A DNA stretch of 61,963 nt, filler included, from Dugesia japonica (Eukaryota): assembly GCA_001938525.1 (NCBI GenBank). It is 6 parts of 6 records of this genome, joined end to end, with 100 filler letters (N's around TTAATTAATTAA, not from the genome) between each part and the next. Parts side by side here need not be neighbours in the genome. Positions count along the whole stretch, not along the records: positions 19,785 to 32,149 come from MQRL01607966.1; 5 more parts are not named here. One strand, written 5' to 3'. A model generated the notes under the pieces. It searched no databases. It had not been told where the DNA came from and saw nothing but the letters and a program-made list of their open reading frames with translations. Each line of letters starts with the position of its first letter. The stretch's first letter is position 1. Shown in pieces: positions 7,101 through 60,735 of the stretch. The position numbers and the translations under genes were made by a program.

Positions 7101-7692
7101 TTTCCCGATTGATCTTTTCCTCCACTGTAATATTCAAATGTAGATGTATAAGTTTTAAAATTTATCGTCAACTGTGGTGTAAATTTCAGTATTATTAAAA
7201 TAATAATGTGTTTTAAATTTTAAATAAATTGGAGAGTGATAACACGCCGACTGATACCAGATTATATAGTCAGCTCGGCCGTCGATCAGTTTGTCGCTAA
7301 ACCACTGACGCTGGCTGCTATTTACACAACAATTCTAGAGATAGCTNNNNNNNNNNNNNNNNNNNNNNNNNNNNNNNNNNNNNNNNNNNNNNNNNNNNNN
7401 NNNNNNNNTCGTTGAAGCGAATTTACTGCTTGTCAAATTGTCATTAATAATTCAACTAGGTAAATATTTTTCTATTTACAAATATTTCAAAATTTCTTTA
7501 TCAAATAAAAATCAATATATTTCCTTGTGTACTCAAATCAAAATTCTATTAAATATTTCGAAATTTAATATTCCTTAATTAAATTGTATTATCGATAATT
7601 TTAATTAAATTCAGCCATCCCAATAACTAATAATCAGAATAATATAGCAAAATAATGTAATCAAAATAATATCAAAATATAATGTTGTATAT

Positions 7693-8181
7693 TTGAATAA
7701 CATCAAGAATCACATGTTTGATGGATTGAACTGGTTGAATTGGTTTGATGGATCAAATCATAGTCGCTCCCAAAGAATCAGGCGGTTTCAACATGAAAGA
7801 TTAATTCCTATTTGTACTAAGAAGGTTATTCAATATGGCGTACAAATCCATATTTGGGGATGCTTTTCACGATTCGGTGTAGGAATTTTGAAACGAATAC
7901 ATGGTACGTTGAATTCTGCAACCTATCAAAACAAGATTGTCAATGAAATTGACCTAGTTGGCAAGTGCTTAGTCTTCCCTCTGCGTAGGTTCAGATTGCA
8001 GCACGACAATGCTCCTTGCCATCGATCTGCATCAACATTATCTTTTCTCAGTGAACGTCAAATCGATATATTAAATTGCCCTGGAAATTCTTCTGATGCC
8101 AAGCCGATTGAAAATTTGTGGCATTTCATAAAGATCAAAATGAATGCTTATGAAATTTGGGCGGAGTTACAAAAGATATAG
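7693..8181 (+). mobile_element. Tc1-family (DD34E) transposase fragment
   Basis: Motifs IHIWGCFS, LNSATY and QHDNAPCH...PIENLW, with 34 residues between the second D and the E. Confidence 0.9.
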
Positions 8182-9532: not shown

Positions 9533-9620
9533 AATAGCAAAATATTTTATAATTTAATGTTTGAGAAATGAATTTGAAGTTATTTCATATAAGCTTAACT
9601 TTATAAATATTTCATTTCAG

Positions 9621-10351
9621 ATACGATTTGGCATACTGATCTCGATTTCATTTTGGATCCAGATAGTTGGCATCGAACTTTTACCAATAACGAAAAGTGG
9701 CGAATTACTTGGTTAATGAAGCCTCAATATTTCAATTTAATATTTTGTTTGATTTGTTTAATATTAAAATATCCATGTGTATTCTGGTCTTGTCATAAAG
9801 GTTTCTCATTTACATTTTCTCTTTTATTAACACTTGTAAGTTTTCATGTCATTATTGACTATAGTGCAACTTGTGTATTAATTCGTATAGCTTCAAATCC
9901 AAATTTTGTTTCAGAAAATTTACAAATTACATTTTTATCACCAATATTTTTTATGTTACTTTCAACATTAGGATCAGTAGTGATACTAATAACATTTTGG
10001 TGTGTATTTGAATTTGGATTTCAACAGTTTCTTGATAATTTGATACGATATCGACATTTAATGATTATGCAATGTGACGGATCTCACGATGGCAGCAATA
10101 TGTCTGATGTAACTTGTTGTAAAAGAAAACATCTGTATTTACGAGGGTATCTTCCACACCTTGGTGCTATTTTCGGATGTGCACTTGGATTTAGTATGAA
10201 AACTCCATTATTTTATGCTGGTATCAGCATTGTATATCAACACACTCGTGATCCATTAATGTTATTGAATTTATTGGTAGCAGTAATTTTCATTTGTGTA
10301 TGGCTCATTACTTGGTTTGGATTCACTCTTAAGCCCAATTGGAGATTTATA
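9621..10351 (+). CDS. Internal exon of a tincar-like multi-pass membrane protein
   Basis: Acceptor ttcatttcag ends at 9620; donor ATA|GTAAGT at 10352. The frame reads TIWHTDLDF...KYPCVFWSCHKGFSFTFSL...YLPH...VWLITWFGFTLKPNWRF, matching recalled Tincar motifs (IWRTDLDF, RYPAVFW.TNK.F, LWLFLT.K..W.F). Confidence 0.75.
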
Positions 10352-10943
10352 GTAAGTTTATGAAAAAGATAATTGAATAAAAATTATATTTTTCTATCCT
10401 TTGGCACAATATTTTTAGTTTAAAAATATCATGTCAATATTAATGGTAACCGACTTATTAGAAATTATAAATAACGAAAAAAATTAATTATTTTTAAAAA
10501 TTAGTTTAAATTATTTTAGGATTATGATATTTAATGTTTTTATTATTTTCANNNNNNNNNNNNNNNNNNNNNNNNNNNNNNNNNNNNNNNNNNNNNNNNN
10601 NNNNNNNNNNNNNNNNNNNNNNNNNNNNNNNNNNNNNNNNNNNNNNNNNNNNNNNNNNNNNNNNNNNNNNNNNNNNNNNNNNNNNNNNNNNNNNNNNNNN
10701 NNNNNNNNNNNNNNNNNNNNNNNNNNNNNNNNNNNNNNNNNNNNNNNNNNNNNNNNNNNNNNNNNNNACTTGTTAGCTTATCTTTCAAAGTATTGAGAGT
10801 TATACTCATATTTTCATCAATTCATTCTTTTATAGCATGAACATGGGCATCATGCAATGCTTTCTTTCTAACTCCACCTTTCAACCGACTTTCAATATGA
10901 CCTTCTTTCAAGTATACCACTATCACTGCGTATACTGTTCAAA

Positions 10944-11540
10944 TTGTTACATAAATTATCGTTGATTTATCTTTGTTCGAATGTCCATTTAAATAAGAAT
11001 CAACTATTCTCTTATAGCATGAAAAAGTTCTACACGCAATATGAGCAGTATAAACCAGGGCTGTCTTGTAAACCAAAAATTCCTCACCAAGACACCGAGT
11101 ACTTGGATTTTGGCCAGCTAAAAGCTGTAAAACGAAAAAAGGAGAAGAACGAGAATGAATGTATGTCCTATCAGAATACTCTTCATTTAGGGGACACTCA
11201 AAAACTAGCTAATCACATTAGTATTCAAACCACTCAACTCACTCTACGTGTTGGTTCACTTATTACCAGGTTTTTTACCTTTGCCCACAATATAATGATG
11301 CAAGCTACCGCGGTTAGCTTTAATGCTAGGTGCGGGATACCAATGGAGCGAACTGAGAAAAGTTTATCTTCCACTTTTGATCATAACTCGCTAATGTTTT
11401 TGGAAAAGGCGAAAAAACCACCTTCTGTCCGAGTACACAAGCATGTTGTTGAGTACATACTAGCATTATTGAAAACTAATTCAAATAATTATACGAACAA
11501 GCATATAAAAACAAAATTGATTTACAAATTTTCAAAATGA
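10944..11540 (+). CDS. Unassigned 198-codon open frame (possible exon or TE remnant)
   Basis: Long open frame in AT-rich DNA with a candidate acceptor (ctcttatag, ending 11017). No motif recognised. Confidence 0.2.
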   Translation: MLHKLSLIYLCSNVHLNKNQLFSYSMKKFYTQYEQYKPGLSCKPKIPHQDTEYLDFGQLKAVKRKKEKNENECMSYQNTLHLGDTQKLANHISIQTTQLTLRVGSLITRFFTFAHNIMMQATAVSFNARCGIPMERTEKSLSSTFDHNSLMFLEKAKKPPSVRVHKHVVEYILALLKTNSNNYTNKHIKTKLIYKFSK

Positions 11541-25112: not shown

Positions 25113-26340
25113 TAATAGAGTACTGATTAAACGAAATAAACCAAATTTATTTGTCAATGTCCGTAAATTTAATCTTTGAATAGTAAATAGCAAAAAAATA
25201 AAATGTTTAAAACAGTCTGAAATTTAAGCTATACAATTATTACACTTTCGTATTGATTAATACGATCCAAGAAAACGAAAGAAAAATTTATCATTTTAAA
25301 TATAACGAGTTATTTAAAATAACTTAAACAATTTGATACATATAAACATGGAAGAAATTAAAAATTAAAAAAATCAAAAAAAACTTGAAGGTTATTGCGA
25401 ATAAAGATAAATTATTTCCTTTAAAAACTAAGTAATTTAAAGTTCATTCTTCATTTAACTAAAATTTTGCTATTAATAAAAAAAACTATGTAAAAAAGCT
25501 TTTGTATGAGCTTTAATTCTGATTGCTAAATAATCGTATCTGTCAGTATCAATTCATGAATTTCAAATATCTGAGATTTTTTATTTTCATTTATAATATT
25601 AAAATTGGTTTTTTGAAACTTTTAAAATATAAAACAGGTTTTTTAATGTTGGGTATTTCTACTCAACAAGTAATTTATGGTTCGATTATTTTATAACTAC
25701 TGATAGATAATATGTTTGTGAATTTACGGGTGTTGATTTTTCCCTTTATATGTTCGTACAGTATTATATAAACAATATCTTAATAAAATTTATAAATAAA
25801 GTTATATCGTGTATGCTTCCTATATAAATAACTAATAAATACCTTGAATAATTTATTTTTGATGTATAAGAAATACAAATGCAACCTTAAACCTTATTGG
25901 CAGTATTTTAGAAATAAGCTAGAGATGCCTTACCAGAGAGGTCGGATTCTAGCTGAATCAAAAGTTACTGGAAAATAGCTAAAACTGATCAGTATTTATA
26001 TTGATTTTACATACGTAGGCTATACACACATCAATGAATTGATCAAAATATAATTGTTACTAATAGATATTTTTTATAATAAAATAATCAATATTTACAG
26101 ACCATTAAATAAAATTAATTGTTCAAAATAAAATAGAATTATTATTCACATAAGTATTCAAGAAATAACACAGACAAAGTGAAAACAGAATCACATATTA
26201 TTGACTTTCAAGTTTATCGATCGGATCTTGAATTGGGTTGCATCGAATGTTGAAACAGAATTGATGTCCATTTGAATCTATCAGGTGTTGATTCGAATCT
26301 CATGTCAAGATTGATGTTTATGTCATTGTTTTTGTTGTGT

Positions 26341-27403
26341 TTATTTTGTCTGCATGCTGTGTTGTATTATGTAGATCTCAGATCTCAACAAATGTACCCC
26401 CTTACTAAAAGATGCTCCGTCATCTTTACGGGAATAGAAATCGTGGGCAGGCCATGTCGTGTTATGCTGATAATACTTCATCCATATAGGTTCATTGAAT
26501 ATACAAGCGGGGAATTCATATTCGGGGTTGATACTCGAAGGAGAGGTGGAAGGGTCTCTTGAAAAAATGTTTCTTGGGTTATGCAATCTGGAATATCTTC
26601 TGGTGCGGATCGGAGGAATTCATCTGTCTGCTTATAGTTCAGAAACATTCGTGGATATTTGGCTGTCTGGTAGACCTGTGAACAGTTTCGTATTTCGATG
26701 TTATGGACTAGCAGATTATATCTTTCTCCATTTCTGGTGGCCTCTGTGAATTCTTGGTTAAATTCTAACTTATTTAGGATTTTAATCGTATCAGAGAAAT
26801 GAGATTGTTCCCTTTTAATAACTGAATTAATCTGCTTTTCTGTTTATTAGGAAGGGGTCCATAGCTGATGGTACGGATATCGTCATTGATTTGTTTAACG
26901 GAAATGGAGTCGCGCTGTGTGCATATAGTGAGGAATTCACTAGTGGGATCGCTTTTATCTGGAGTGTCAATTTGGTACATGAAAGGTGTTAAATGAGCAA
27001 ACCTAAGGTTATTATTATGAGGCATTTTTATTAACAAGGTGAGAGGTATAAATTGTCCAATTGTTGGGACTTGTTGATGACAAATTTCGGCACGTACATA
27101 ATTTTGCTGGTGAATTTTGTAAGTCCTACATGAGGGACAAGGGACGATTCTTGATGCTGTGACGTCGAAGTATTGTGTATTGCAGGAAAAACTAAAGTAG
27201 TGCCCACATTGAGCTATTCTTGGCATTATAGGTTTATCATAACATAAAGGGCATATAGGGTTATGATCAACAATCAAGGAGACAAGAGCAATATCGCGCC
27301 AGCTATAGTCAAATGGATTTTTTATGTTTCTGTGTTTCTCATATAATACAATACGGGCATTATTTTGCAGGAATTTCCTTCTGGACTGAATTGTTAGCTC
27401 CAT
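26341..27403 (-). pseudogene. RNF10/Mag2-like RING E3 ubiquitin ligase (retroelement cargo, frameshifted)
   Basis: FLQNN..YSWRDI..CPLC-x11-CGHYFSFSC-x14-CPSC..IGQFIPLTLL parallels RNF10 FLQAN..VNWDFV..CPIC..CGHIFCWAC..CPIC..VGDTITMQLM. After a frameshift near 26800, VYQTAKYPRMFL..DIPDCI parallels the RNF10 FYQAEDGQHMFL..SPEKI block. Confidence 0.75.
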
Positions 27404-27502: not shown

Positions 27503-29067
27503 TTATTTTAGTCGATCGATGGACACATTTAATAGATTGTTATCTGTTTTATCTATGGCTAATGTGAGTAGTGCGCCATCTTGTGTCATTGCAACTTTGT
27601 TAAATAGCGTGTTTTCTACTATGAATTTCAACTTCTTGTTGCCATTTTCTTCTATCTTTGTTAAATGGATTCTCTTTTTTCCATACCTTAGGTAAATATC
27701 AGCATTTGGTGTCGTGTGAAATCTAAATTCTCCTCTCTTCTTGTTTCTTTTATTTGATGTTTCTTCCCAACTAACTTCTGGTTCAGTTAAATATATACCC
27801 GGTTCTGGTCCTATTGAATCGTCACTCTCACTATATGGTACATATACACCATCTTCTCTAACTTGGTCTACCGTAAGATCCTTCAATTGTTCGTCGTCGT
27901 TATCAGATTCTGTAAGATCTATACTGCATCTTTGTTCTACCACCCCTTCCATTTCTCCGTCTCCCATATCAGACCAATATTCAGTACTGCTGTTTAGCTC
28001 TCCTTCATCAAAATCACAACTTTCCTCATAGTAGTGAATTGGAACTTTTTTCGACTTCTCGATTACCCACTGTTCATCCTTTTGACCTTGGATCGCAAAC
28101 TGTCTTTCTTCTTCATCCCTTTGTCGTATCACTTCTTCATCTTCAGATTTGGGATCGTATCCAATATTGCCATTTATTTCCCTTTCGTCTAACTTGATAT
28201 CGTCTGAGTCTAATTTGACTTTTATATCTATGTCTTCCTCGGATTCCGAATCCATTATCCATCGAATACTTATTGGCTTAACCACTTCCCTAATTGCAAT
28301 TTCCTGTATAGTGTCCTGATCTCCTTCATCTATTGATATATTACTGGTTAGTATCGGTTGCAAGGAATCTTCCCATTCCTGTTGGCTAGACATCTGTTTG
28401 TAAGTTATCCTGATTAGCGTCGTTTTTTTTGCTGTTGATTCATACTTCGTATTTCTAGCTGTATTCAACACATCCTTTATAATATATTCGTGTCTTAATG
28501 ACTTAAATACTGCTTCCATTAAATTAAGGAATTTAAGCTTCTTGACATTTGGAGTGTATTGTCGTCTCCATTTTTCCTCTGCGAGATCTCTAATGCCAAT
28601 TACGTATGAAGGCTTATCAAATTTTTCCCAATATTATATCCTACTAGTATTTTTCCATAAATTAGTTGCCTTGCTTTCAATATCAATGGGTAAGCATCTT
28701 TGTATTGTCGAATTTTTTCCTGATCACATCCTGTGATATGATAGTCAAAATGTCTAATTTTTTCTCTTGGACTGAGAGTTTCAACCATTAAAATAGTTCC
28801 ACTGCTTGACATAATAGTTATCTCTACTAACTGTGGGTTAGAATACACATCTTTTACTGTTCTCATATCAATACATACCGTAAGTTGATAAATATCTTCT
28901 GCCATCAATATTGCATATTTTATAAATGACGTATAGTTAAGTAGATCTATATAGGAAACAGTGCAGTGTCCCCTAATGCTCGTGAAAGATGGAAAAGGTA
29001 TAGGTATCCGATCATGGTATATGATTTCTACTGCTAAAACCGCTGGATATTTTGTATGGCTATCCTA
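27503..29067 (-). pseudogene. DEDDh (REXO4/ISG20-like) exonuclease-fold protein with acidic tail (cargo, frameshifted)
   Basis: The frame is open from about 29064. VCIDMRTV..LSPREKIRHFDYHITG..LIYGKILVGYNI..(frameshift near 28605)..IRDLA..DVLNTAR runs into the 338-aa acidic ORF. Confidence 0.7.
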
Positions 29068-29128
29068 ATATTATTTATATTTTTATTTATTATCTCTTCA
29101 ATTATTAGTGAGGTGTTGTTAACTACAG

Positions 29129-29686
29129 TTATTTCATTTTTGTTATGCGTGAATTTGATAGGGTTTTTGTAACATGCATTCGAATGGCTTTAATAATTCT
29201 TTTCCCTTTTTTCAATGCATTTTCAGGGTTCTTGGGGATCTTTATATACCCTATTAATTGTTGAAGAGTGTATCGCTTTGCTTCCTGAAATCGTATCATG
29301 ATTAAATCCTTATCAAAGGTGTTATTTTTTAATGCATTAGGGATTTTTGCCACCTCATTAAATGTTTCTATTCTGGACTCGGTTTGTTTCTCTTTAAATG
29401 TAAAGTTNNNAATGGTATCATAAAATTGTGGGATACTTTTTGTGGTAAAGGTAGAAGATGAAGGCATATTTGTTGTGTCACTCTCTGTATGTATGTTTGT
29501 GTCTGTTTGATTATTAATTTTTTGTTTGTTGTTACTTTTGCTTTTATTATTTTGTCTTGCTATATTTTCTTGTGTCTGCATGTTATGTCGTATAATTGAT
29601 TGATTGTTATGTATGAATATTTTTGTTTGTACTTTGTATTGTATTAACTGTTGACTGACTGCTGCAAATGCGGATTGTTCGAGCAT
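29129..29686 (-). CDS. Orphan accessory ORF (185 aa, N/T-rich linker, basic C-terminus)
   Basis: ATG at 29686 (MLEQSAF...); AATAAA about 40 nt after the stop; co-oriented with pol. Confidence 0.45.
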   Translation of the reverse strand: MLEQSAFAAVSQQLIQYKVQTKIFIHNNQSIIRHNMQTQENIARQNNKSKSNNKQKINNQTDTNIHTESDTTNMPSSSTFTTKSIPQFYDTIXNFTFKEKQTESRIETFNEVAKIPNALKNNTFDKDLIMIRFQEAKRYTLQQLIGYIKIPKNPENALKKGKRIIKAIRMHVTKTLSNSRITKMK

Positions 29687-29759
29687 TTCTTCTAAAACAA
29701 ATGAATAATTAATGATTGAATTTAAGGACTGGTTAGTCCTATATACTGCTACAGGTATT

Positions 29760-30702
29760 AGTAGCTTATTATATAAATGAAAATATATATAAATAATAAT
29801 ATGAAACATTACAATTATCATTTTGAAATTTACCGCGAGGTGTTCAGACCAATGTCCATAGGACAAAATTTTGGAATATGCGGGGTATTGCGCGCCAATA
29901 ACGCTGCCTCTTCTACCTGTATCGCTTATGTATTTGTATTAATGTAGTTATGAAAGCGAGGAGGATTCTCAATCATTCTCAATATTGAGAAAGGATGATG
30001 TAATATTTTTATGTGAAATGTTTTTACTGTTGTGGTGGTAATCCATAATTGTAGGATTTTATGTCGCAATTGTTGATGATCGAACTTGATGTTATTATTC
30101 AAAGTTTTTCTATTTCTTTTCGAATTTTTGTTTATACTCATATTTGTTGTCATTTTCACTGTGTAGGTATTATGATGAATAGTTGTTTCTATTTGTGGTT
30201 TGGTTGTACTCGACCTTTCTTGTCTTGTAAGAATAGTCACAGATCTCGTCTTTATTTGTGATTTGGTTGTACTCGACGTTTCCTGTTTTTTTGAAGGATT
30301 CATTAACTGTCTTTGTGGTATAATCAGTTTCTTTGGTAATGTGGTAAATATATACTGTCTCAATAATTTGACTCTGCTCATTCTATACTGTATTCAAATT
30401 CTATATGCTGTGTCAGCTTCTAGTCCTTTTATCTCTATCTGGCCTATCCCTTTGCTCAATTTTATTGATATTGCTGTAAAAACATATCTCTTCTTCGTGG
30501 TGTATTCATTTACTCTGACATATTCGTTTACTTGCTCTTTTATTGTTGCAGCGATTGTTATATTATTCGGTGCCTTCAGTACGATACTATTGGGATATTT
30601 TATCCTTTCTATAATACCAAATCCTTCTTCTTTCTCCAGTTTAGCTGCACCTACTGTTAATAATGTCACTAAAGTTAGTGCAAAGAGTGGTAATGCATTT
30701 TG
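29760..30702 (-). pseudogene. Env-position ORF: signal peptide, FN3-like domain, Thr/Ser-rich stalk and hydrophobic tail
   Basis: In frame with KYNLRSE*: NALPLFALTLVTLLTVGAA, then PNSIVLK...IEIKGLEADTAYRI*I...FTTLP (FN3-like), a 21-aa S/T repeat, and terminal CFILLFIYIFIYIISY. Contains in-frame stops. Confidence 0.55.
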
Positions 30703-32149
30703 TCATTCTGATCGAAGGTTATATTTGTGTTGTTTTTCAGGTTCAATTTCTGNNNNNNNNNNNNNNNNNNNNNNNNNNNNNNNNNNNNNNNNNNNNNNNN
30801 NNNNNNNNNNNNNNNNNNNNNNNNNNNNNNNNNNNNNNNNNNNNNNNNNNNNNNNNNNNNNNNNNNNNNNNNNNNNNNNNNNNNNNNNNNNNNNNNNNNN
30901 NNNNNNNNNNNNNNNNNNNNNNNNNNNNNNNNNNNNNNNNNNNNNNNNNNNNNNNNNNNNNNNNNNNGTTTGAATTTTACTTTTAGATTGGCTTGTTTAT
31001 ATACCTCTTGTAGTCTTTCTTGCATTTTTGTAACGTAATCTAAATTATCCATATATTGTGACACAATTGGCTCAAATGTTATATCTATCGGCATATGATT
31101 TTGTCTGAGGTACACAAGATAAAATGGGGAATATCCCGTGGCTTCGTTCTCAGTTGTATTATGTATGAACAATGTTGACTTAATAAATAGATCCCAATCA
31201 TTTTGATGCTTATTTACGAAAAATGCCAATCTTTTACATAATGTACTGTTAAATCTTTCAACTAACCCATCAGTTTGTGGGTTATGAGCCGTCGTATTTA
31301 TTTTTTTAATATCAAACATATTTGTTACTCGTTGTATGACTTCATTGAGGAAACTCTTTCCCCTATCTGATAGCAGCTTTCTTGGCGCTCTATATTTGTA
31401 TATTATCTTTTCAACTAATAACTTTGCTACTGTATCTGCTGTTTCATCTTTTGAAGGAAATGCCTCTGCCCACTTTGTAAAATAGTCATTTATTGAATGA
31501 ATGAATAAATGAATAAATAGTCATTTATTCATTCATTGAATACTAATATATGTTTGTTGCCTTTTATAGTTGTTGGTAATTTGCACAAAAAATCAATTGC
31601 ACATGTTTCCATTGGTGAGCTAGGTATTGGCATTGGCTGTAATGGGACTTTGGTTTTTGTTCTTGTATTCTTTCTTGTGGCACAGATACTACATGCTTGA
31701 CACCACTTCTTTACATCCTCTTTGATATTAATCCCAATAGTATTTTTGTAGTAATCTTGACGTGGTTTTTCTACTAAACAGGTGCCCTCCGAGCGCTCCA
31801 TCATGATATTGCAATAGTAATAATTGTTTTAGAGAATCTGGTACAACCATCAGATTTTACCCTAAATTATTGTACATAAGTAAATTCTTATACATTTTAT
31901 ATTTAGTATTCTTTTCTTGAATCATCATCTTTTTAATTTCTTGTATTTGTTTATCTTTAGTTTGTTCCTCCAGAAATGTTTTTGGGTTTTTTCCCGCCAT
32001 AACGATTGACATCATTTCTAATATATTTATTTCTGGAATTCTTGGTAATGCATCCGCATTTTTATTTGCTCTACCTAGCTTGTATATAATACGTATGCTC
32101 ATATCTTGAATTTTCATTGCCCACTTCAGTATTCTACTGGATGCATCTT
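30703..32149 (-). pseudogene. Gypsy pol C-terminus (end of RNase H, integrase Zn finger and DD35E core)
   Basis: RILKWAMKIQD..NKNADAL, CQACSICA, CAIDF, LLSDRG, NPQTDGLVERFN, TGYSPFYLVY, and KYNLRS after an N gap. Confidence 0.93.
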
Positions 32150-32249
32150 NNNNNNNNNNNNNNNNNNNNNNNNNNNNNNNNNNNNNNNNNNNNTTAATTA
32201 ATTAANNNNNNNNNNNNNNNNNNNNNNNNNNNNNNNNNNNNNNNNNNNN
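32150..32249. other. Artificial contig-joining spacer
   Basis: TTAATTAATTAA at 32194-32205 between two 44-N runs. Confidence 0.97.
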
Positions 32250-48136: not shown

Positions 48137-49187
48137 TTACAACTGTTCAATGTGACCTCCTTCAACTTTCTCACAAAGTTCTACACGATTCAACAGCTCC
48201 TTCTGTCAATTGTTGTTTTTATTGTTTGATTTAAATGTTTCTAACGCTGCAAAAATCCTCTCGACCAATTCCTCTTTATTTTTTGGTTCTCCAATTTCAT
48301 AAGCTTTGGATTTTTTGTGGCACCATATGAAGAAGTCTAATGGATTTAGATCTGGTAATCTTGGCGGCCACTCCACAGGTCCATTTATTCTAATCCAACG
48401 TCTTTGAAAGTGCACATCCAAAAAATTTATCACCACCTTAGCTCGGTGGGATGAACATCCATCTTGCATGAACCACATTTTTCTTCTTATAATAAGTAGA
48501 ACATTTTTGAGTAATAATGGAAGCTCCAATTGCAGAAATTGTTGATAAATATTGGTGTTCAAATGACCACAAGACGCGATACCCGATTTTAAATTGTCCG
48601 ATCAGTCCTGCCCATACGTTTACTGAGAATCTTTTTTGAAAATTAGTTTCTCTTATCGCATGTGGATTTTCTGCTGCCCATACATGTTCATTATGAGAAT
48701 TGTTGATTCCGTCCCTTGTGAATGTAGCCTCATCGCAGAATAGAACAGTTGGAATCAATTGTGAGTGCTGATTTAACCATTTGCCAAATACTACTCTTTT
48801 TTCAAAATCACCTTGGTGAAGCTGTTGAATGTATTTAAAATGATATGGATAAAGGTTTTCCTCACGTAACCTCTGTCAAACGGTTGTTTGCTTAAGTCCA
48901 GTTACAGCTGACATTCTTCGTACGCATGATTTAGCATATTTATTTACTTTTTTCAATATGACCTCAGCTCTGTTTCTTCTTTGTATAACTCTTTCGCTGC
49001 ATTCCTTAGGGAAACATCCTTTTTCTTTAAGTGACGCTAAGACACGGCAAAATGTTCCACAATCAGGTAACCTGTGGTTAGGAAATCTTTCGCCATACTT
49101 CTTTCTAGGTACGGCGAAATTACCGTCACAGTATCCATACAAAAATGTCATATCAACGTACTCCTGATCGGAAAATTGAAATGGCAT
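48137..49187 (-). pseudogene. Near-complete DD41D (rosa/Visitor) Tc1/mariner-superfamily transposase
   Basis: MPFQFSDQEYVDM..VLFCDEATF..VNVWAG..FMQDG-(41 aa)-D in WPPRLPDLNPLDFFIW..GGHIEQL*, with stops and one frameshift. Confidence 0.92.
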
Positions 49188-50313
49188 TATGTCTAATCTA
49201 TAATATTCAAATGATAATAAAATATTCAAATATTAAAATACTTTAATTATTAATAAAATTTATCTAATTTTAAAATGGTGCGACAATAATATATTTTTGT
49301 TTGGAATATTCAAAAAGCACTTTTAATAGTTTGAATATTAATAAATATTAAATAAATACAACGTTTAATAAATATTAAATAAATATAAGTATTAATAAAA
49401 ATTAATTATTCGATCCTCAATATCTTGTAAATGGTTGATAATCGGACCAATGTTTATAAGACATTTTTTGCTATAAATGACTCAAGGAAGCTAACTCCCC
49501 GAATAGTGTATATGATATACATTTCAGTGTTGTTTATATCTTTACCTTACGCAACATACTATTAAAAACATTAAAGAAAATTTAGATTATCAAAAAATAT
49601 TATTGGAAAAATGTTAGATTTAAATAATCTTTTATTACAGAATTAGTTTTGGTATTTCATAGTTACTACTTCCAAACAAATTGCACTGAACTTACGAAAA
49701 TAACATTAACGTGAAGGATGGGTCTTTTTACTTGCGGAAATATTTTTCAAAATTTTAAATGATCATTAAAAGTGATTTCAAATTTTTAAAAAATCATAAA
49801 AATTTTAAATGAATTTTAATTTAATAATTCATAACAATTTTTCTTTTTAAATGAATGTTTATTTGTAACTATTGTTAATCAAAAATATATAANNNNNNNN
49901 NNNNNNNNNNNNNNNNNNGAAAAAGTAATTTAAAATATAAACTTATTCAATATTCTCACGGGCTTATGTTTTTTATTTTATCTTTTCATTGATGTTCCAC
50001 AAAATTATAATTTCAATTTTTGATTTCACAACAACAGCCCATAAAATAGTCAATGCTTGTTTATTTATTAGACAATAAAATGAAATTAACAAATTCTATG
50101 AAAAAAAATAAGCAAAGAAATTCATCGTTAATATTAACTTTTTAAAAATATTATTTAAATTAATTATATAAATATAAGTTATTTTTTATTTGATTAATAA
50201 GAAAATAACATATTTAAATTTTAAATTTGTTAAATTAAGAAATATTATTTTATTTTTGAACTTAAAATTTTCGAAATTTATTTAATTTATTTTTTGTTTG
50301 CGAAGAAATAATA

Positions 50314-52975: not shown

Positions 52976-54319
52976 AATTNNNNNNNNNNNNNNNNNNNNN
53001 NNNNNNNNNNNNNNNNNNNNTTTTTTTGAATAAACAAATAATGCTGGTCAAAGTTTTTGTATTGCGAATAAATATTTAATGGAATCAATTTGTGAATTTA
53101 ATTCTTAGATGAGTATTTCAAACTCATCTAACAATGATATTTTGCAATATTTCCGCTGATAATCAACGACTTATTAAACGTGTAGAGCAAGCTTGATCAT
53201 ACGAAACACTTTGAAAATGCATTATAATCCAGTAGGGTGCNNNNNNNNNNNNNNNNNNNNNNNNNNNNNNNNNNNNNNNNNNNNNNNNNNNNNNNNNNNN
53301 NNNNNNNNNNNNNNNNNATATATATATATATAACTTTCTGTATTACTTTTGTGTTTGTTTAAATATTTAAAAATTTTCCGTCATTTCAATTGAAGATTTC
53401 AAATATGGTAAAAAACCAAATGTGTGCCGTTTATCTTTATGAGTAGAAATTGGGCCATAACGAGGCAGAAGCAAGTCGAAATATCAATTGCACATTCAGC
53501 CAGAGGACGATGAGCGCTCTATGTTGTAGTTCCAAAATTCTAGAAATGGAAATGAGAGCCTAGAAAATGAATAAAATCGTGGACGTCCAGTTTCCGTGGA
53601 TAATATATTGTGTATGTGTGTATTGGTACAAATGAATTTTAATGTTGTTCCAGTATATAATGTCCAATATTTAGCTGAACTGTATTTAGTCAATGATGGC
53701 AAATAACATTTGTTGAATATTTTGTGATAAGAGAAACCGTTTGTTATATAGTTTAGTCTTAATAATTCTTAACTACAAATGCTTATTAGCAAATTTGAAA
53801 GAGAAGAAATTCCTTATGGCAAAAAAGAAAAATTTTCCAATCGAAATAATTTTTTTTACTTTTTATATTTATTTCTAAAAAGCAATTATTAGATTTCATT
53901 AGATATAAATAGATTATAAATGTTTCTATAAGAAATTCAATTTCTCTATAAAATTTTATTTGAAGAAAAATAGAAAATAAAAAAATTAATATTATCGTTA
54001 AATTAGATTAGATTAGTGAAAAATCTCAAATGTTTTGAAGCTATTTTATTTTATTAAAATAATTATGATAATAAATTGTTTTTAAAAAATGAATTTTTTA
54101 AATAAAATTAACGAAGTGTAATTTTTTGTTAACTCTGACTAAATTTTATTTGTTATCAAATCCAAAACAATAATCTTTTCTTCTATTTTGGTTTTCATTG
54201 TTTTTTTTTAATGTTTTTCAGAATGGAAATCTAATTTGTTTTACAAATTGCATATTAAAAAATTAAAAGTTCCAGATTAGTTTTTTAATTACAACTGTTA
54301 TATTACTTTCAAACTATAT

Positions 54320-55245
54320 TGATCCATTTTTTTATCGATTCATTATTGAGGCTTTTAAAAAGTTTAAGAATTCGATTCTAATAGCTGTTAAGGATCTTCC
54401 TTTATTGAAAATTGTTTCTACTTCACATGAGATTGTTAATAACTTTGTTAATAAATCCCATACACCAATTGGTTTGTGTTATAATCTTGTTTATCAATTT
54501 AAATGTAATGGGTGTGATGCCGCATATATTGGAAAGACTGTCCGTCATTTCTGTACAAGGGTTCAAGAGCATAATCGTTTAGGGGGTGGTAGTAATATTG
54601 TTGAGCATAAAAATAAAAAAAATGTAATTGCAATGCGAATGTTGAAATTTCAAATTTTAAAATGTTGTCTAAACAATTTAAAAATTACTGGGAGTGTTGT
54701 ATGAGGCGTTAATGATTAGATTTCATAATCCAACCATTAAGGTACAAGCAGCTCATTAGGCTAAATTAATTAAAAATTTTTAGATTTTTTAGATATAAAA
54801 ATTTTTCAATTTTTGAAATTTTAATATATTTTCATGTTTTTTTAATAGGTTTGTATTTTATTTTCTAAAATAAATTTCAATTTTTATTATTTCATAGGTT
54901 TTGACAATTTTTAATATAATTTAAAATTAAAAATTTNATATATTTTTGTAAAACGTCTTTGATTTTATAGGTTTAAAACAATAATTTTAATGTAATTTTA
55001 TTAAAGAGAAAAAATATTTTTATTAGAATATAAATGTCATTTTTATTGAAAAATTGTAAAAATTAAGAATTTGCAATATTTAAAAATTAAGAATTATAGC
55101 CGTCTTATATTCAGTATAATTGCTTGAATCTTTGTTTAAATAATATAGACTGAATAAACTTATTTTTTTAAGTTTTGTTTTAAGATGACTGTTGATCCGT
55201 ACAAATATATAACAATAAAGTTTTATTTTAAATGGCGTTATTTAT
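54320..55245 (+). mobile_element. Penelope-like retroelement 3' remnant
   Basis: NLVYQFKCNGCDAAYIGKTVRHFCTRVQEH (GIY-YIG with the CxxC insert typical of PLEs); paralog of 16.9-17.8 kb. Confidence 0.88.
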
Positions 55246-57525: not shown

Positions 57526-58455
57526 AAATATATATTGAAATGGCATTTCAGAGTTTTTATTTAGATATTTATTTTGATAAATATTTTAATTTTCATTTTT
57601 GTTTCATTTTTCAAAGACGTTTAATTATTTCCAATAAATTGTAAAAAGTGACTACTTAAGAAAAAGTTATCATGTTTAAAAGTGGTTACTTCATTACCGG
57701 ATTTACCTATAGACTAAATAGGCTTAAGCCTAGGACCTCGAGTTCTATGGGCCTCAATTCAAGGTGTAATGAATTAATAATGAAATTTTACGCTAAAAAT
57801 ATCTATATATTGAAAATTCGAACATTTGAAATGACTTAACTTAATTAAATGCGTTGTTATTTATGCACACTTTATTATTTTTCTTGGAAAAAGTAAGTAT
57901 AGAGACTCGATGTCCACAAGAGTTGTTTATTTACGTACAACCAGACAATGTCATAAACTGCTCTCCGAAACCCAAACCTTTCTAACGAATTGTTGCAAAT
58001 ACGAAACACGTGTTAAATGAAAAGATTAGTATTATTATATTAATTATACTAATAATATATTGAATTTAACATATTGATATTATAATGTTGATGTTTTATT
58101 ATATTTTATCATGTGCTTTAAAATAAATGAAAATGGAATATAGAGGGACAAGGCCTACATCGAACCAACACTGTGGAGGGACCTCCTAAGTAAAATAGCC
58201 ACAAAAATTTTTAAAAATTTTTTAAACAAAACAAAATCGTTTCTAACTAATTTTATACTTACAAATTTAAAAACTAAAAAACATTAAAAATTTTAGATAT
58301 TTCCTTAATTTTTTCTGTGGTAAGTTGACTGACAATGACACAAATGATGAAATTTTAAAAATACTTAGTTAAATTATTGTTTCAAAATATAATTATTACA
58401 TTTATTGTGAAAATAGCAATTTAAATAGTTATTTTGAAAAATTAAAAACATTTAC

Positions 58456-60061
58456 CGGAAGACCTGGAAACTTTAATTTCTGCTTCGCCGCATGATTCAG
58501 CTACAACAATTGACGTATCATCAAAATGAAACATACCAGCATGATCATCGTCTAAAACCATTATGGTAGCTGTAAAGGGTTCAATTAATTCTACACCAGA
58601 CATATTTTGATCCATCAATTGATTTACAGACAGCTTATTTCCATCGCGAGTTATTAATCTTGAGGATTTTAAATTTATAAAGAAATGTTCATCAGCTTCA
58701 AAAATATCATCATCAATAATAGAAATTTCAATATTCTTTCGATCTTCTCCCGGCTCAAATAATAAAATTCCACTGGTCGCTATGTAATCTTCTCCAGCAT
58801 TTGCAGTGCCATCTTCAGTGCAGAATTCAACTTCTATTCTGGTTTTTGCAATTTGCTCTTCTGTTCCAGTTCTTGCAACCACAACGTTAAAGGTTCCTAC
58901 GTTTTCCATTACAGTATAATGGCCTGGGTCGAAGAAAATCTTTTGATTGTTATTTTCTATTTCTTTCAATCCCAATTTGTCAGGATCCTGTGACATTCGT
59001 CTTTCTAATTTTGACTTTTTAATTACATTACCGCTACCAGTAAGAGTCCTTGTAGCTTGCATCCTATAAAACGCTCTTGATTTTGGAACTCTATTTAATA
59101 CTTCAATTTGAGCCTGTTCTTCTAATGCTTTTGTATCGATATTTGGATTTTTTAATCGAATTTCTTTAATTACTTCAATATAGTCTAGCCTGGTCTTTTC
59201 AAATTCTGTCAAATTTTCCCTCTTATCTCCATCTAGATGAGCATCTTCTAAATTATGATTACAATGCAATTCATGATCTGTTTCCAGAGCATATGATTTC
59301 AAATTTTTTCTTAAATACCGCCGCTTTAAAAATTTTTTAATGAATACTTTTGTATCTGCAATATAAGCAGTAATAACAGTCAAAAAGAAAAAGAAAAAAG
59401 TCAACAAAGCTTCCCAAACATCAATGACCTCTGGAGAAATAACAGCAATTATCAAATATAACCATATATATGCAAAGACGCTCCATGTTGCTGTTATAAA
59501 AAACACACTTAAATGCTTAATTTTTCTTACCTCACTGTCGGGTATGACGTAGACACAGTAACCTATAATTATAAATAGATTAAAAGCAGCACTCCCAACA
59601 ATTGTGCCAGGACCTAAATCCCCCGCTTCAAATCTACTGCCACAAATTTCAATAACAGAAAGAAGAATTTCAGGAGCTGAAGATCCTAATGCCATTAGGG
59701 TTAAATTGGAAACTGTTTCATTCCATATTCTGACATTAACTGTTTGAGATTCTCCATTTTTTTTTCGTATGACCACTTTTCTTTCTTTAGACGTTATCAC
59801 TTCAATTGAAGCCATAAACCTATCAGCTATGATTGATACTCCCAAAAATAAATACATCAGTGAAACAAAATAAACAAATGCTCTTGCAATTTTATCACCA
59901 GTACTCAAACCATCTACAGGTTCCCATAGTGGTAAAAGTATTCCTTTTTTGCATTTTGTATCCTGTGACGATTCACAAGTACCATTTTTCAAAGGTGCAC
60001 ATTGAATCAATAAAAGTTCGACTAAGATTACAACACATCCAATCAATAAATTACCTCCCAT
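58456..60061 (-). CDS. SLC8A: Sodium/calcium exchanger (NCX/SLC8A family), large first coding exon
   Basis: Signal peptide, alpha-1 repeat ([35 protein letters not shown]), XIP-like region, RAFYR motif, Calx-beta CBD1 ([24 protein letters not shown]) and the start of CBD2. Donor TCCG|GTAAAT at 58455. Confidence 0.97.
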
Positions 60062-60735
60062 TGAGAAATTTGCAAAGTTAAACTAACATAATAAATTGTT
60101 AAATAATCCTTGTCAATAGTCCAAAAGAATTTTGATTGAACAAGTTCGTAAGAAAATCCTTGACTGCAGGAAATAATTCAAATAATAAATTGGATACTGC
60201 TGAAATTTTTTGTATGCAATGAATCGGAGGAAGTTGACAAACATTCACTATTACACACAAACATGAATTAACTAATATTATCGCAAAGAATTGACTGTAC
60301 ACACCGATTAAATGTTAGCAAAATATAGAGTCATGATTATTTTTCTACCCCTTTATTTTTATAACATTGTACATCACTTTGTATTTAAACCATGTTTCTA
60401 AATTTTGGGATTCTTTATAATTATTTGAAATAATTGGATCAGTGGCGAAAGTTTTTTTAATGTTATGAAATTCTGCAGAATTCTAATATAAATTATTTGA
60501 AATCAATTATTATTTTACACTAAAATAAATTTGCACTTTTAAATATTTTCAACATATATTGTTGCTTGCGTTTGTGTCACTTGATTCCTGATACTATTTA
60601 TGCATTAAACAGAAATTCCAGGGCATTTATTGTTCATAATCCAACTTTTTCTGTTATAATGTACTTGAAAGTTGTAATTATAATGATATATTTAGCTATA
60701 ATGATATATTATAATGATATATTTAGGAGCAAGAG

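Follow-up and report, generated by a model that had tools for sequence, protein, structure and literature searches.

A decayed RNF10/Mag2-like RING gene of a Gypsy element in Dugesia japonica and its intact compact relatives

Features of the Locus

The window analyzed here is a 61,963-nucleotide stretch of Dugesia japonica DNA (GCA_001938525.1) made of six parts joined by filler letters, and all positions count along it. It is AT-rich, with a GC content of 19–40% in 2-kb bins and a drop from 0.39 to 0.25 near 26300, and the part taken from MQRL01607966.1 holds an RNF10/Mag2-like reading frame (Table 1). On one strand, a Gypsy integrase, its tail, a broken ORF of about 750 codons and the RNF10-like gene follow one another in that order. 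The integrase shares 38.5% identity with the integrase of a metagenome locus, L023 (tblastn E = 4.5e-65). Pfam rve matched the window at E = 4.5e-6, under the curated cut-off, while in L023 both H2C2 and rve scored above the Pfam cut-off. No LTR pair, repeat pair or clear purine tract was found around the element, whose 5′ half is absent from the window. With its frameshifted ORF and broken integrase, the window copy is decayed, and so is its element.

Table 1. Features of the Gypsy element and its RNF10-like gene in the window.
Feature	Position	Strand	Description
Filler gap	32150..32249	.	Cuts off the 5′ half of the element (gag, protease, RT, 5′ LTR)
Gypsy pol 3′ end	30972..32149	minus	Integrase core preceded by an H2C2 zinc finger and a putative RNase H end motif; broken by frameshifts and stops
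Post-integrase tail	29929..30750	minus	YNLR, signal-like hydrophobic stretch, repeat resembling FN3, region rich in Thr; broken up by stops
Broken accessory ORF	28603..29938	minus	Possible DEDD (ISG20/REXO-like) exonuclease fold after a weak PAZ-like stretch; homologue of the ~700-aa ORF of L020–L024
376-aa acidic ORF	27506..28633	minus	Its stop precedes the start of the RNF10-like gene by 99 nt
RNF10/Mag2-like ORF, first part (ORF1)	26777..27403	minus	Met at 27403, open for 209 aa; N-flank, C3HC4 RING, post-RING strands, start of helical hairpin
RNF10-like continuation, other frame	26481..26843	minus	Overlaps the end of ORF1, the frame shifting within this overlap at 26.8 kb; similarity detected over 26819–26628; VYQ at 26675, MFL at 26648

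The layout of the window tail is that of the in-frame tail behind the integrase in loci L020 and L023, with the FN3 likeness judged by eye; a tail profile found no significant match in the window tail. This integrase tail is unusual and envelope-like in appearance, with YNLR, a signal-like stretch and FN3-looking repeats, plus a late hydrophobic segment in L020 and L023 (L023:3-2441), and a literature search for such a tail found none with all its features.

The accessory ORF (window 29938–27506, minus strand) has counterparts at L020:3723-5873, L021:2020-4143 and L023:4325-6445. Searched with tblastn against the metagenome ORFs, it matched at E = 5e-4 to 0.04 over 28836–28606 and at E = 0.11 over 29551–29246, and an accessory-ORF profile matched the window at E = 7e-4. 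The acidic ORF is probably its frameshifted C-terminal part, a continuity judged by eye. A model of the exonuclease-like ORF, of low confidence (pLDDT 36.6), had ISG20L2, REXO2 and ISG20 as its top Foldseek matches (E = 1.6e-4 to 1e-3); sequence matches reached E ~ 0.2 at best, with PAZ at E = 0.22, and at E = 0.097 in one of four members. The first catalytic motif of the DEDD set seems degenerate by eye, and viral contigs searched with this ORF gave no match. We regard the PAZ-like and exonuclease-like ORF as a candidate small-RNA-binding factor.

Other features of the window were also recorded. A host gene for casein kinase II alpha, with a very short first intron, begins on the same strand (25112–24860, minus), some 1.2 kb past the downstream end of the element. 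Past the filler gap, a higher-GC, coiled-coil-rich ORF run (38095–35215, minus) with no Pfam match above cut-off is probably another mobile element. Decayed transposases of Tc1/mariner-like type, together with a fragment of a GIY-YIG domain, lie at 49232–48206 (minus), 7648–8181 (plus) and 54267–54704 (plus); an ArgoMid Pfam match at 48438–48875 looks spurious. A pair of hydrophobic, multi-pass-looking ORFs without a Pfam match and a 546-aa Na/Ca exchanger ORF were found at 9599–11540 (plus) and 58442–60082 (minus), respectively.

The RNF10-like Reading Frame

It had been claimed from the sequence that the match in ORF1 extends beyond the RING to flanks specific to RNF10, and this was borne out. 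The three flank motifs are present at FLQNN (27373–27359), W-x2-I (27301–27290) and IGQFIPLTLL (27061–27032), and a profile built from 154 RNF10/Mag2-type proteins of hosts matched ORF1 at E = 3.4e-27 over residues 13–184, far past the RING. Pfam detected the RING alone (zf-C3HC4, E = 2e-6), and a word-index search for ORF1 among longer proteins gave no match. The zinc ligands are C27253, C27244, C27208, H27202, S27193, C27184, C27139 and C27130, so that seven of the eight are intact in the window copy and the fifth is Ser, as had been read. The residue after the eighth ligand is R. The earlier note had proposed looking for Cys in the consensus, and all eight ligands are present in each of the nine compact relatives described below, leaving the Ser private to the decayed window copy.

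A second conserved block had been placed after a frameshift. Aligned with residues 204–267 of the best relative, P0001, this block scored 67, a score reached by none of 300 shuffles (34.3 ± 5.8), and a profile of the compact family built without the window found it at E = 0.044, the best after ORF1 of 1,867 window segments. No significant score was obtained against seven other proteins (four compact, three host), the host RNF10/Mag2 profile missed the block when run over the window, and among the phmmer-hit proteins with tblastn matches in the window, 0 of 153 found it. The HLP block was not detected in the window. The second block is genuine but weak: the VYQ/MFL part of the claim holds, while its ‘P..I’ part and the end at 26341 are unsupported because detectable homology stops near 26628.

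The region between the RING and this block had been described as shorter than in host RNF10. It spans about 151 codons in the window and 142–159 in the compact forms; the median for hosts is 195. The description holds to a modest degree, and 35 of 147 hosts also have a spacer of at most 160. The real compaction lies in the loss of both termini.

Relatives and Phylogeny

A phmmer search with the window protein over 1.84 billion representatives returned 170 matches at E ≤ 0.001. The best relative of ORF1 is P0001, a compact protein of 386 aa that is 36% identical over residues 4–208 (E = 4.4e-30) and begins at the same Met position; the next RNF10-type match was at E = 1.9e-9. Two further compact proteins, P0003 (319 aa) and P0006 (445 aa), were among the matches, most others being full-length RNF10/Mag2 with names that include Clunio RNF10, a Pelomyxa RNF10-like protein and a MAG2 homologue. 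The match ranked second, a repetitive Chitinophaga protein (P0002), was discarded as spurious. Two profile searches contributed P0156 and P0246–P0251. P0001 and P0003 are sequences without genomic context, and element context was seen for the window and for six metagenome loci (L020–L025). In the ESM Atlas P0001 was matched best (score 0.95) by a eukaryotic RING cluster of 399 aa whose 186 members are mostly from arthropods, which we note as a lead.

Aligned by hhalign, the compact and host profiles matched with a probability of 99.95% over 330 colinear columns, and the locus is more than the generic RING that profile searches might have returned. Searches of viral contigs gave RING-centred matches only (19 loci in one, 1 locus in the other); fold searches with the P0001 model gave matches limited to the RING plus a helical hairpin of generic type; and a PDB sequence search found no RNF10/Mag2 chain.

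The compact proteins are reciprocal best matches of one another, and an IQ-TREE analysis of 48 rows placed the compact forms in one clade with support of 96/97, although with long-branch warnings. The clade had support of 99, 73 and 95 in three subset trees and 99 in a fourth, the value of 73 being that of the tree whose compact rows were reduced to the window and the metagenome clade. These trees took in 23–48 of 164 rows, and the host/compact label changes once in all five. An animal donor of the compact clade was neither rejected (p-AU 0.168) nor shown. The closest relative of the window gene falls in this compact RNF10-like clade, and the nearest relatives that carry a name are RNF10/Mag2. 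The RNF10/Mag2 origin that the earlier note had put forward is supported. A pre-RING motif, I-x-[VL]-Y-[EK]-[KR], is an independent character in agreement with one compact clade: 8 of 10 compact rows have it, against 0 of 154 hosts.

Metagenome Loci, Selection and Possible Cassette Exchange

One metagenome scan yielded 385 pattern matches and, from these, the six confirmed loci. Each has an intact RNF10-like ORF, five of which are distinct, one being common to L023 and L024. The contigs begin inside pol. Upstream of the RNF10-like ORF an integrase core was found in two loci (L020 and L023), where it continues in frame into a tail with YNLR, a signal-like stretch and a late hydrophobic segment, and in the other four there is pol-tail sequence, recognized by translation or by 83–97% DNA identity. 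An exonuclease-like ORF, about 700 aa where complete, lies downstream of the RING gene in five of the six. Since the window and the metagenome contigs have all three, the integrase, RNF10-like and exonuclease-like modules travel together, though their order differs, the exonuclease ORF standing before the RING gene in the window and after it in L020–L024. Carriage by a transposable element, as had been supposed, is seen both in the window, behind the Gypsy integrase, and in the matching elements of the intact relatives.

The five intact ORFs are 44–59% identical, and dN/dS was 0.12–0.15 in 3 of 10 pairs, showing purifying selection; in the other seven, silent sites are saturated and dS is not estimable. 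In a control of neutral decay to 36% identity, 209 codons acquired 11 stops on average and none of the 200 runs was free of stops, which argues that ORF1 diverged as a working gene. On the same contigs, the pol ends are 83–97% identical at the DNA level and the RNF10-like genes behind them are saturated at silent sites. Breakpoints lie just before the RING gene in L020, L021, L022, L023 and L025, and a second switch point is located near its 3′ end between L022 and L023/L024. The near-identical pol ends next to divergent RING genes suggest cassette swapping as in conflict genes, though the swapped cassettes could in part be chimeras of metagenome assembly. Overall, we are very confident in regarding the gene as an RNF10 derivative that is under selection and carried by an element.

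Comparison with Host RNF10

Nine compact proteins were compared with a host set of 154 RING-bearing matches of 450–900 aa, of which 147 have four anchor columns and 139 have tails of at least 100 aa. The counts that follow are not independent, because the nine proteins represent about three lineages, with seven of the nine coming from one clade. Of the regions that derive from RNF10, the RING is the most conserved among the intact relatives (72% mean identity, against 28–58% elsewhere), and the FYQ and H-x-P blocks are mostly conserved. The fold of P0001 was predicted confidently, with a pLDDT of 82.9 and a pTM of 0.77. The residue after ligand 8, the linchpin position, is K or R in all nine compact forms but in just 3 of 147 hosts.

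Both termini are lost, and to this extent the compaction described in the earlier note stands. Eight of the nine compact proteins have about 50 aa before the RING where the host median is 152, so that their N-terminus is about 100 aa shorter, and their C-terminal tail is 33–139 aa against a host median of 200. The missing ends are disordered in the host. With them went the RIM/RIH RACK1 motifs (FPx[LF] and S-aromatic-A-x-hydrophobic; 0/9 compact versus 88/139 hosts), the basic C-end (0/9 versus 110/139), the basic patch before HLP (0/9 versus 127/147) and an N-terminal HLL.F-type motif (0/9 versus 73/154). FPx[LF] was likewise not found in the window's minus frames of 26200–26850. Its absence from the compact forms is not decisive, because just 34 of 139 host tails have the strict motif. 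The C-terminal helix is still fairly basic, with 7–13 K/R in eight of the nine and a host median of 13.

There is also a gain. A near-invariant C-x5-C-x12-C-x3-H motif with an acidic loop occupies the last ~45 codons of the L020–L025 ORFs (7/9 compact, 0/154 hosts), and this tail has an identity of 87%, above the 72% of the RING. It may represent a novel zinc finger or an adaptor for substrates.

Proposed Function and Alternative Readings

The host ligase RNF10 is described as monoubiquitylating uS3 and releasing stalled 40S (PMC11604940), and its overexpression is reported to lead to 40S decay (PMC12008924). According to a preprint, human RNF10 lacking the RACK1-binding RIM is impaired in uS3/uS5 ubiquitylation (bioRxiv 10.64898/2026.08.26.747346). 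As for the RING itself, a cationic linchpin is described as promoting ubiquitin transfer, and a Tyr-to-Arg change as enhancing XIAP (PMC12326332).

We lean, with modest confidence, toward intact members being active ligases that have been turned from normal surveillance of the 40S to a new target, probably a restriction factor of the host, the window copy having decayed. An active, retargeted ligase is favoured over a mimic or a decoy because the RING is intact, the linchpin is cationic and the docking features are lost, and because the docking motifs are absent we do not file the compact form as a functional RNF10. A Gypsy lineage captured a host RNF10/Mag2 gene, which became compact by losing both ends, and the ligase may be expressed from a subgenomic message of its own. 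Its intact RING would then catalyze ubiquitin transfer, with the folded RNF10 core serving as a substrate scaffold and lineage-specific tails supplying new specificity. The substrate would thereby shift from the 40S to a host restriction factor, to the benefit of the element.

An extension of this proposal, which we think rather unlikely, is a swappable counter-defence cassette in which the RNF10-derived ligase, the PAZ-like/pseudo-exonuclease protein and, in one clade, the Cys/His finger would together recognise complexes of small-RNA silencing or of translation surveillance on the RNA of the element and ubiquitylate them.

The earlier note had suggested that the protein acts as a mimic or dominant negative on uS3, protecting translation of the element, an idea that is now less supported, as the eight ligands and linchpin look active and the RACK1-docking motif is absent. 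Its active version, a deregulated ligase on the 40S that clears stalled ribosomes from element RNA or lowers host 40S, is somewhat unlikely but stays plausible because the whole 330-column core persists in colinear order, FYQ and H-x-P included, together with a C-terminal helix basic enough to fit continued ribosome binding; the dissociation of stalled 40S by host RNF10 and the 40S decay on its overexpression are also in line with it. Against this, none of the nine compact forms has the RIM/RIH motifs, the basic patch or the basic C-end, the RIM being reported critical for uS3/uS5 ubiquitylation in the preprint cited above. The dominant-negative version, a decoy that occupies the ribosome site of RNF10 or its E2 and shields element translation from initiation quality control, would suit a truncated architecture and the Ser at ligand 5. 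We consider it improbable, given that this Ser is private to a frameshifted copy in an element with a broken integrase, that intact relatives keep the RING as their best-conserved region with a cationic linchpin, and that the docking motifs such a decoy would need are gone.

Two further alternatives concern the origin of the gene. The compact forms could be independent captures, or P0001 a fast-evolving host orthologue and the window gene a separate capture, the two being grouped by long-branch attraction. The long-branch warnings, the differing gene order and the lack of genomic context for P0001 and P0003 speak for this, but the start position, pre-RING motif and linchpin are common to both, the integrase, tail and exonuclease-like neighbours are shared, and the label changes a single time in every tree, which makes it quite improbable. 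Lastly, a lone processed pseudogene of host RNF10 beside a Gypsy remnant, to which the intronless, broken ORF might point, is highly improbable and largely refuted, as no A-run of at least 8 was found downstream of the ORF, neutral decay was never stop-free and intact homologues sit in matching Gypsy elements.

To our knowledge, few counter-defence proteins have been characterized in animal retrotransposons. An element family that took a ligase from ribosome quality control, maintained it by purifying selection and seems to exchange it between near-identical pol backbones suggests that host and transposon are in conflict over translation surveillance or silencing. The compact forms are likewise minimal RNF10 cores of natural origin, and comparison with the host shows the surfaces that go with 40S recognition.

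Comparison with Known Systems

The compact proteins resemble RNF10/Mag2 in having the same flanks round a C3HC4 RING, the helical hairpin, and the FYQ and HLP blocks, and differ in that the gene is intronless and inside a retroelement. Viral RING E3 ligases such as herpesvirus ICP0 degrade host restriction factors, and the proposed mode, a parasite RING ligase aimed at host defences, is alike; in the viral contig and fold searches, however, homology was limited to the RING.

Among retrotransposons, the bdelloid Vesta and Juno are Gypsy-like LTR elements with a DEDDy 3′ exonuclease ORF3 downstream of pol (PMC5408684), and are similar in this respect. The exonuclease-like fold in the window instead resembles the ISG20/REXO type, with the degenerate-looking first motif noted above, and RING and PAZ each have 0 occurrences in the available text of PMC5408684. 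Burro elements are planarian giant Gypsy elements with BIR, MATH/TRAF, SUMO-like and BCL2-like domains and an AIR1 zinc-finger motif, according to the available text of PMC6431247. They share with the present element host-derived, ubiquitin- and apoptosis-related cargo and accessory ORFs, but the cargo described in that text includes no RNF10-like gene. The cargo and env of Burro lie mostly between gag and pol (same text), whereas the cargo in the window comes after the integrase, in an element whose 5′ half is absent.

We found no transposon- or virus-borne RNF10/Mag2 in the literature searched, though the element may already be described in Repbase, in a subscription journal or in the supplements to the Burro work; a mention of RNF10 in PMC4778049 concerns a Helitron-driven host transcript and is unrelated. 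Gypsy elements with host-derived cargo are already known, and cargo derived from RNF10 is new to the searched literature.
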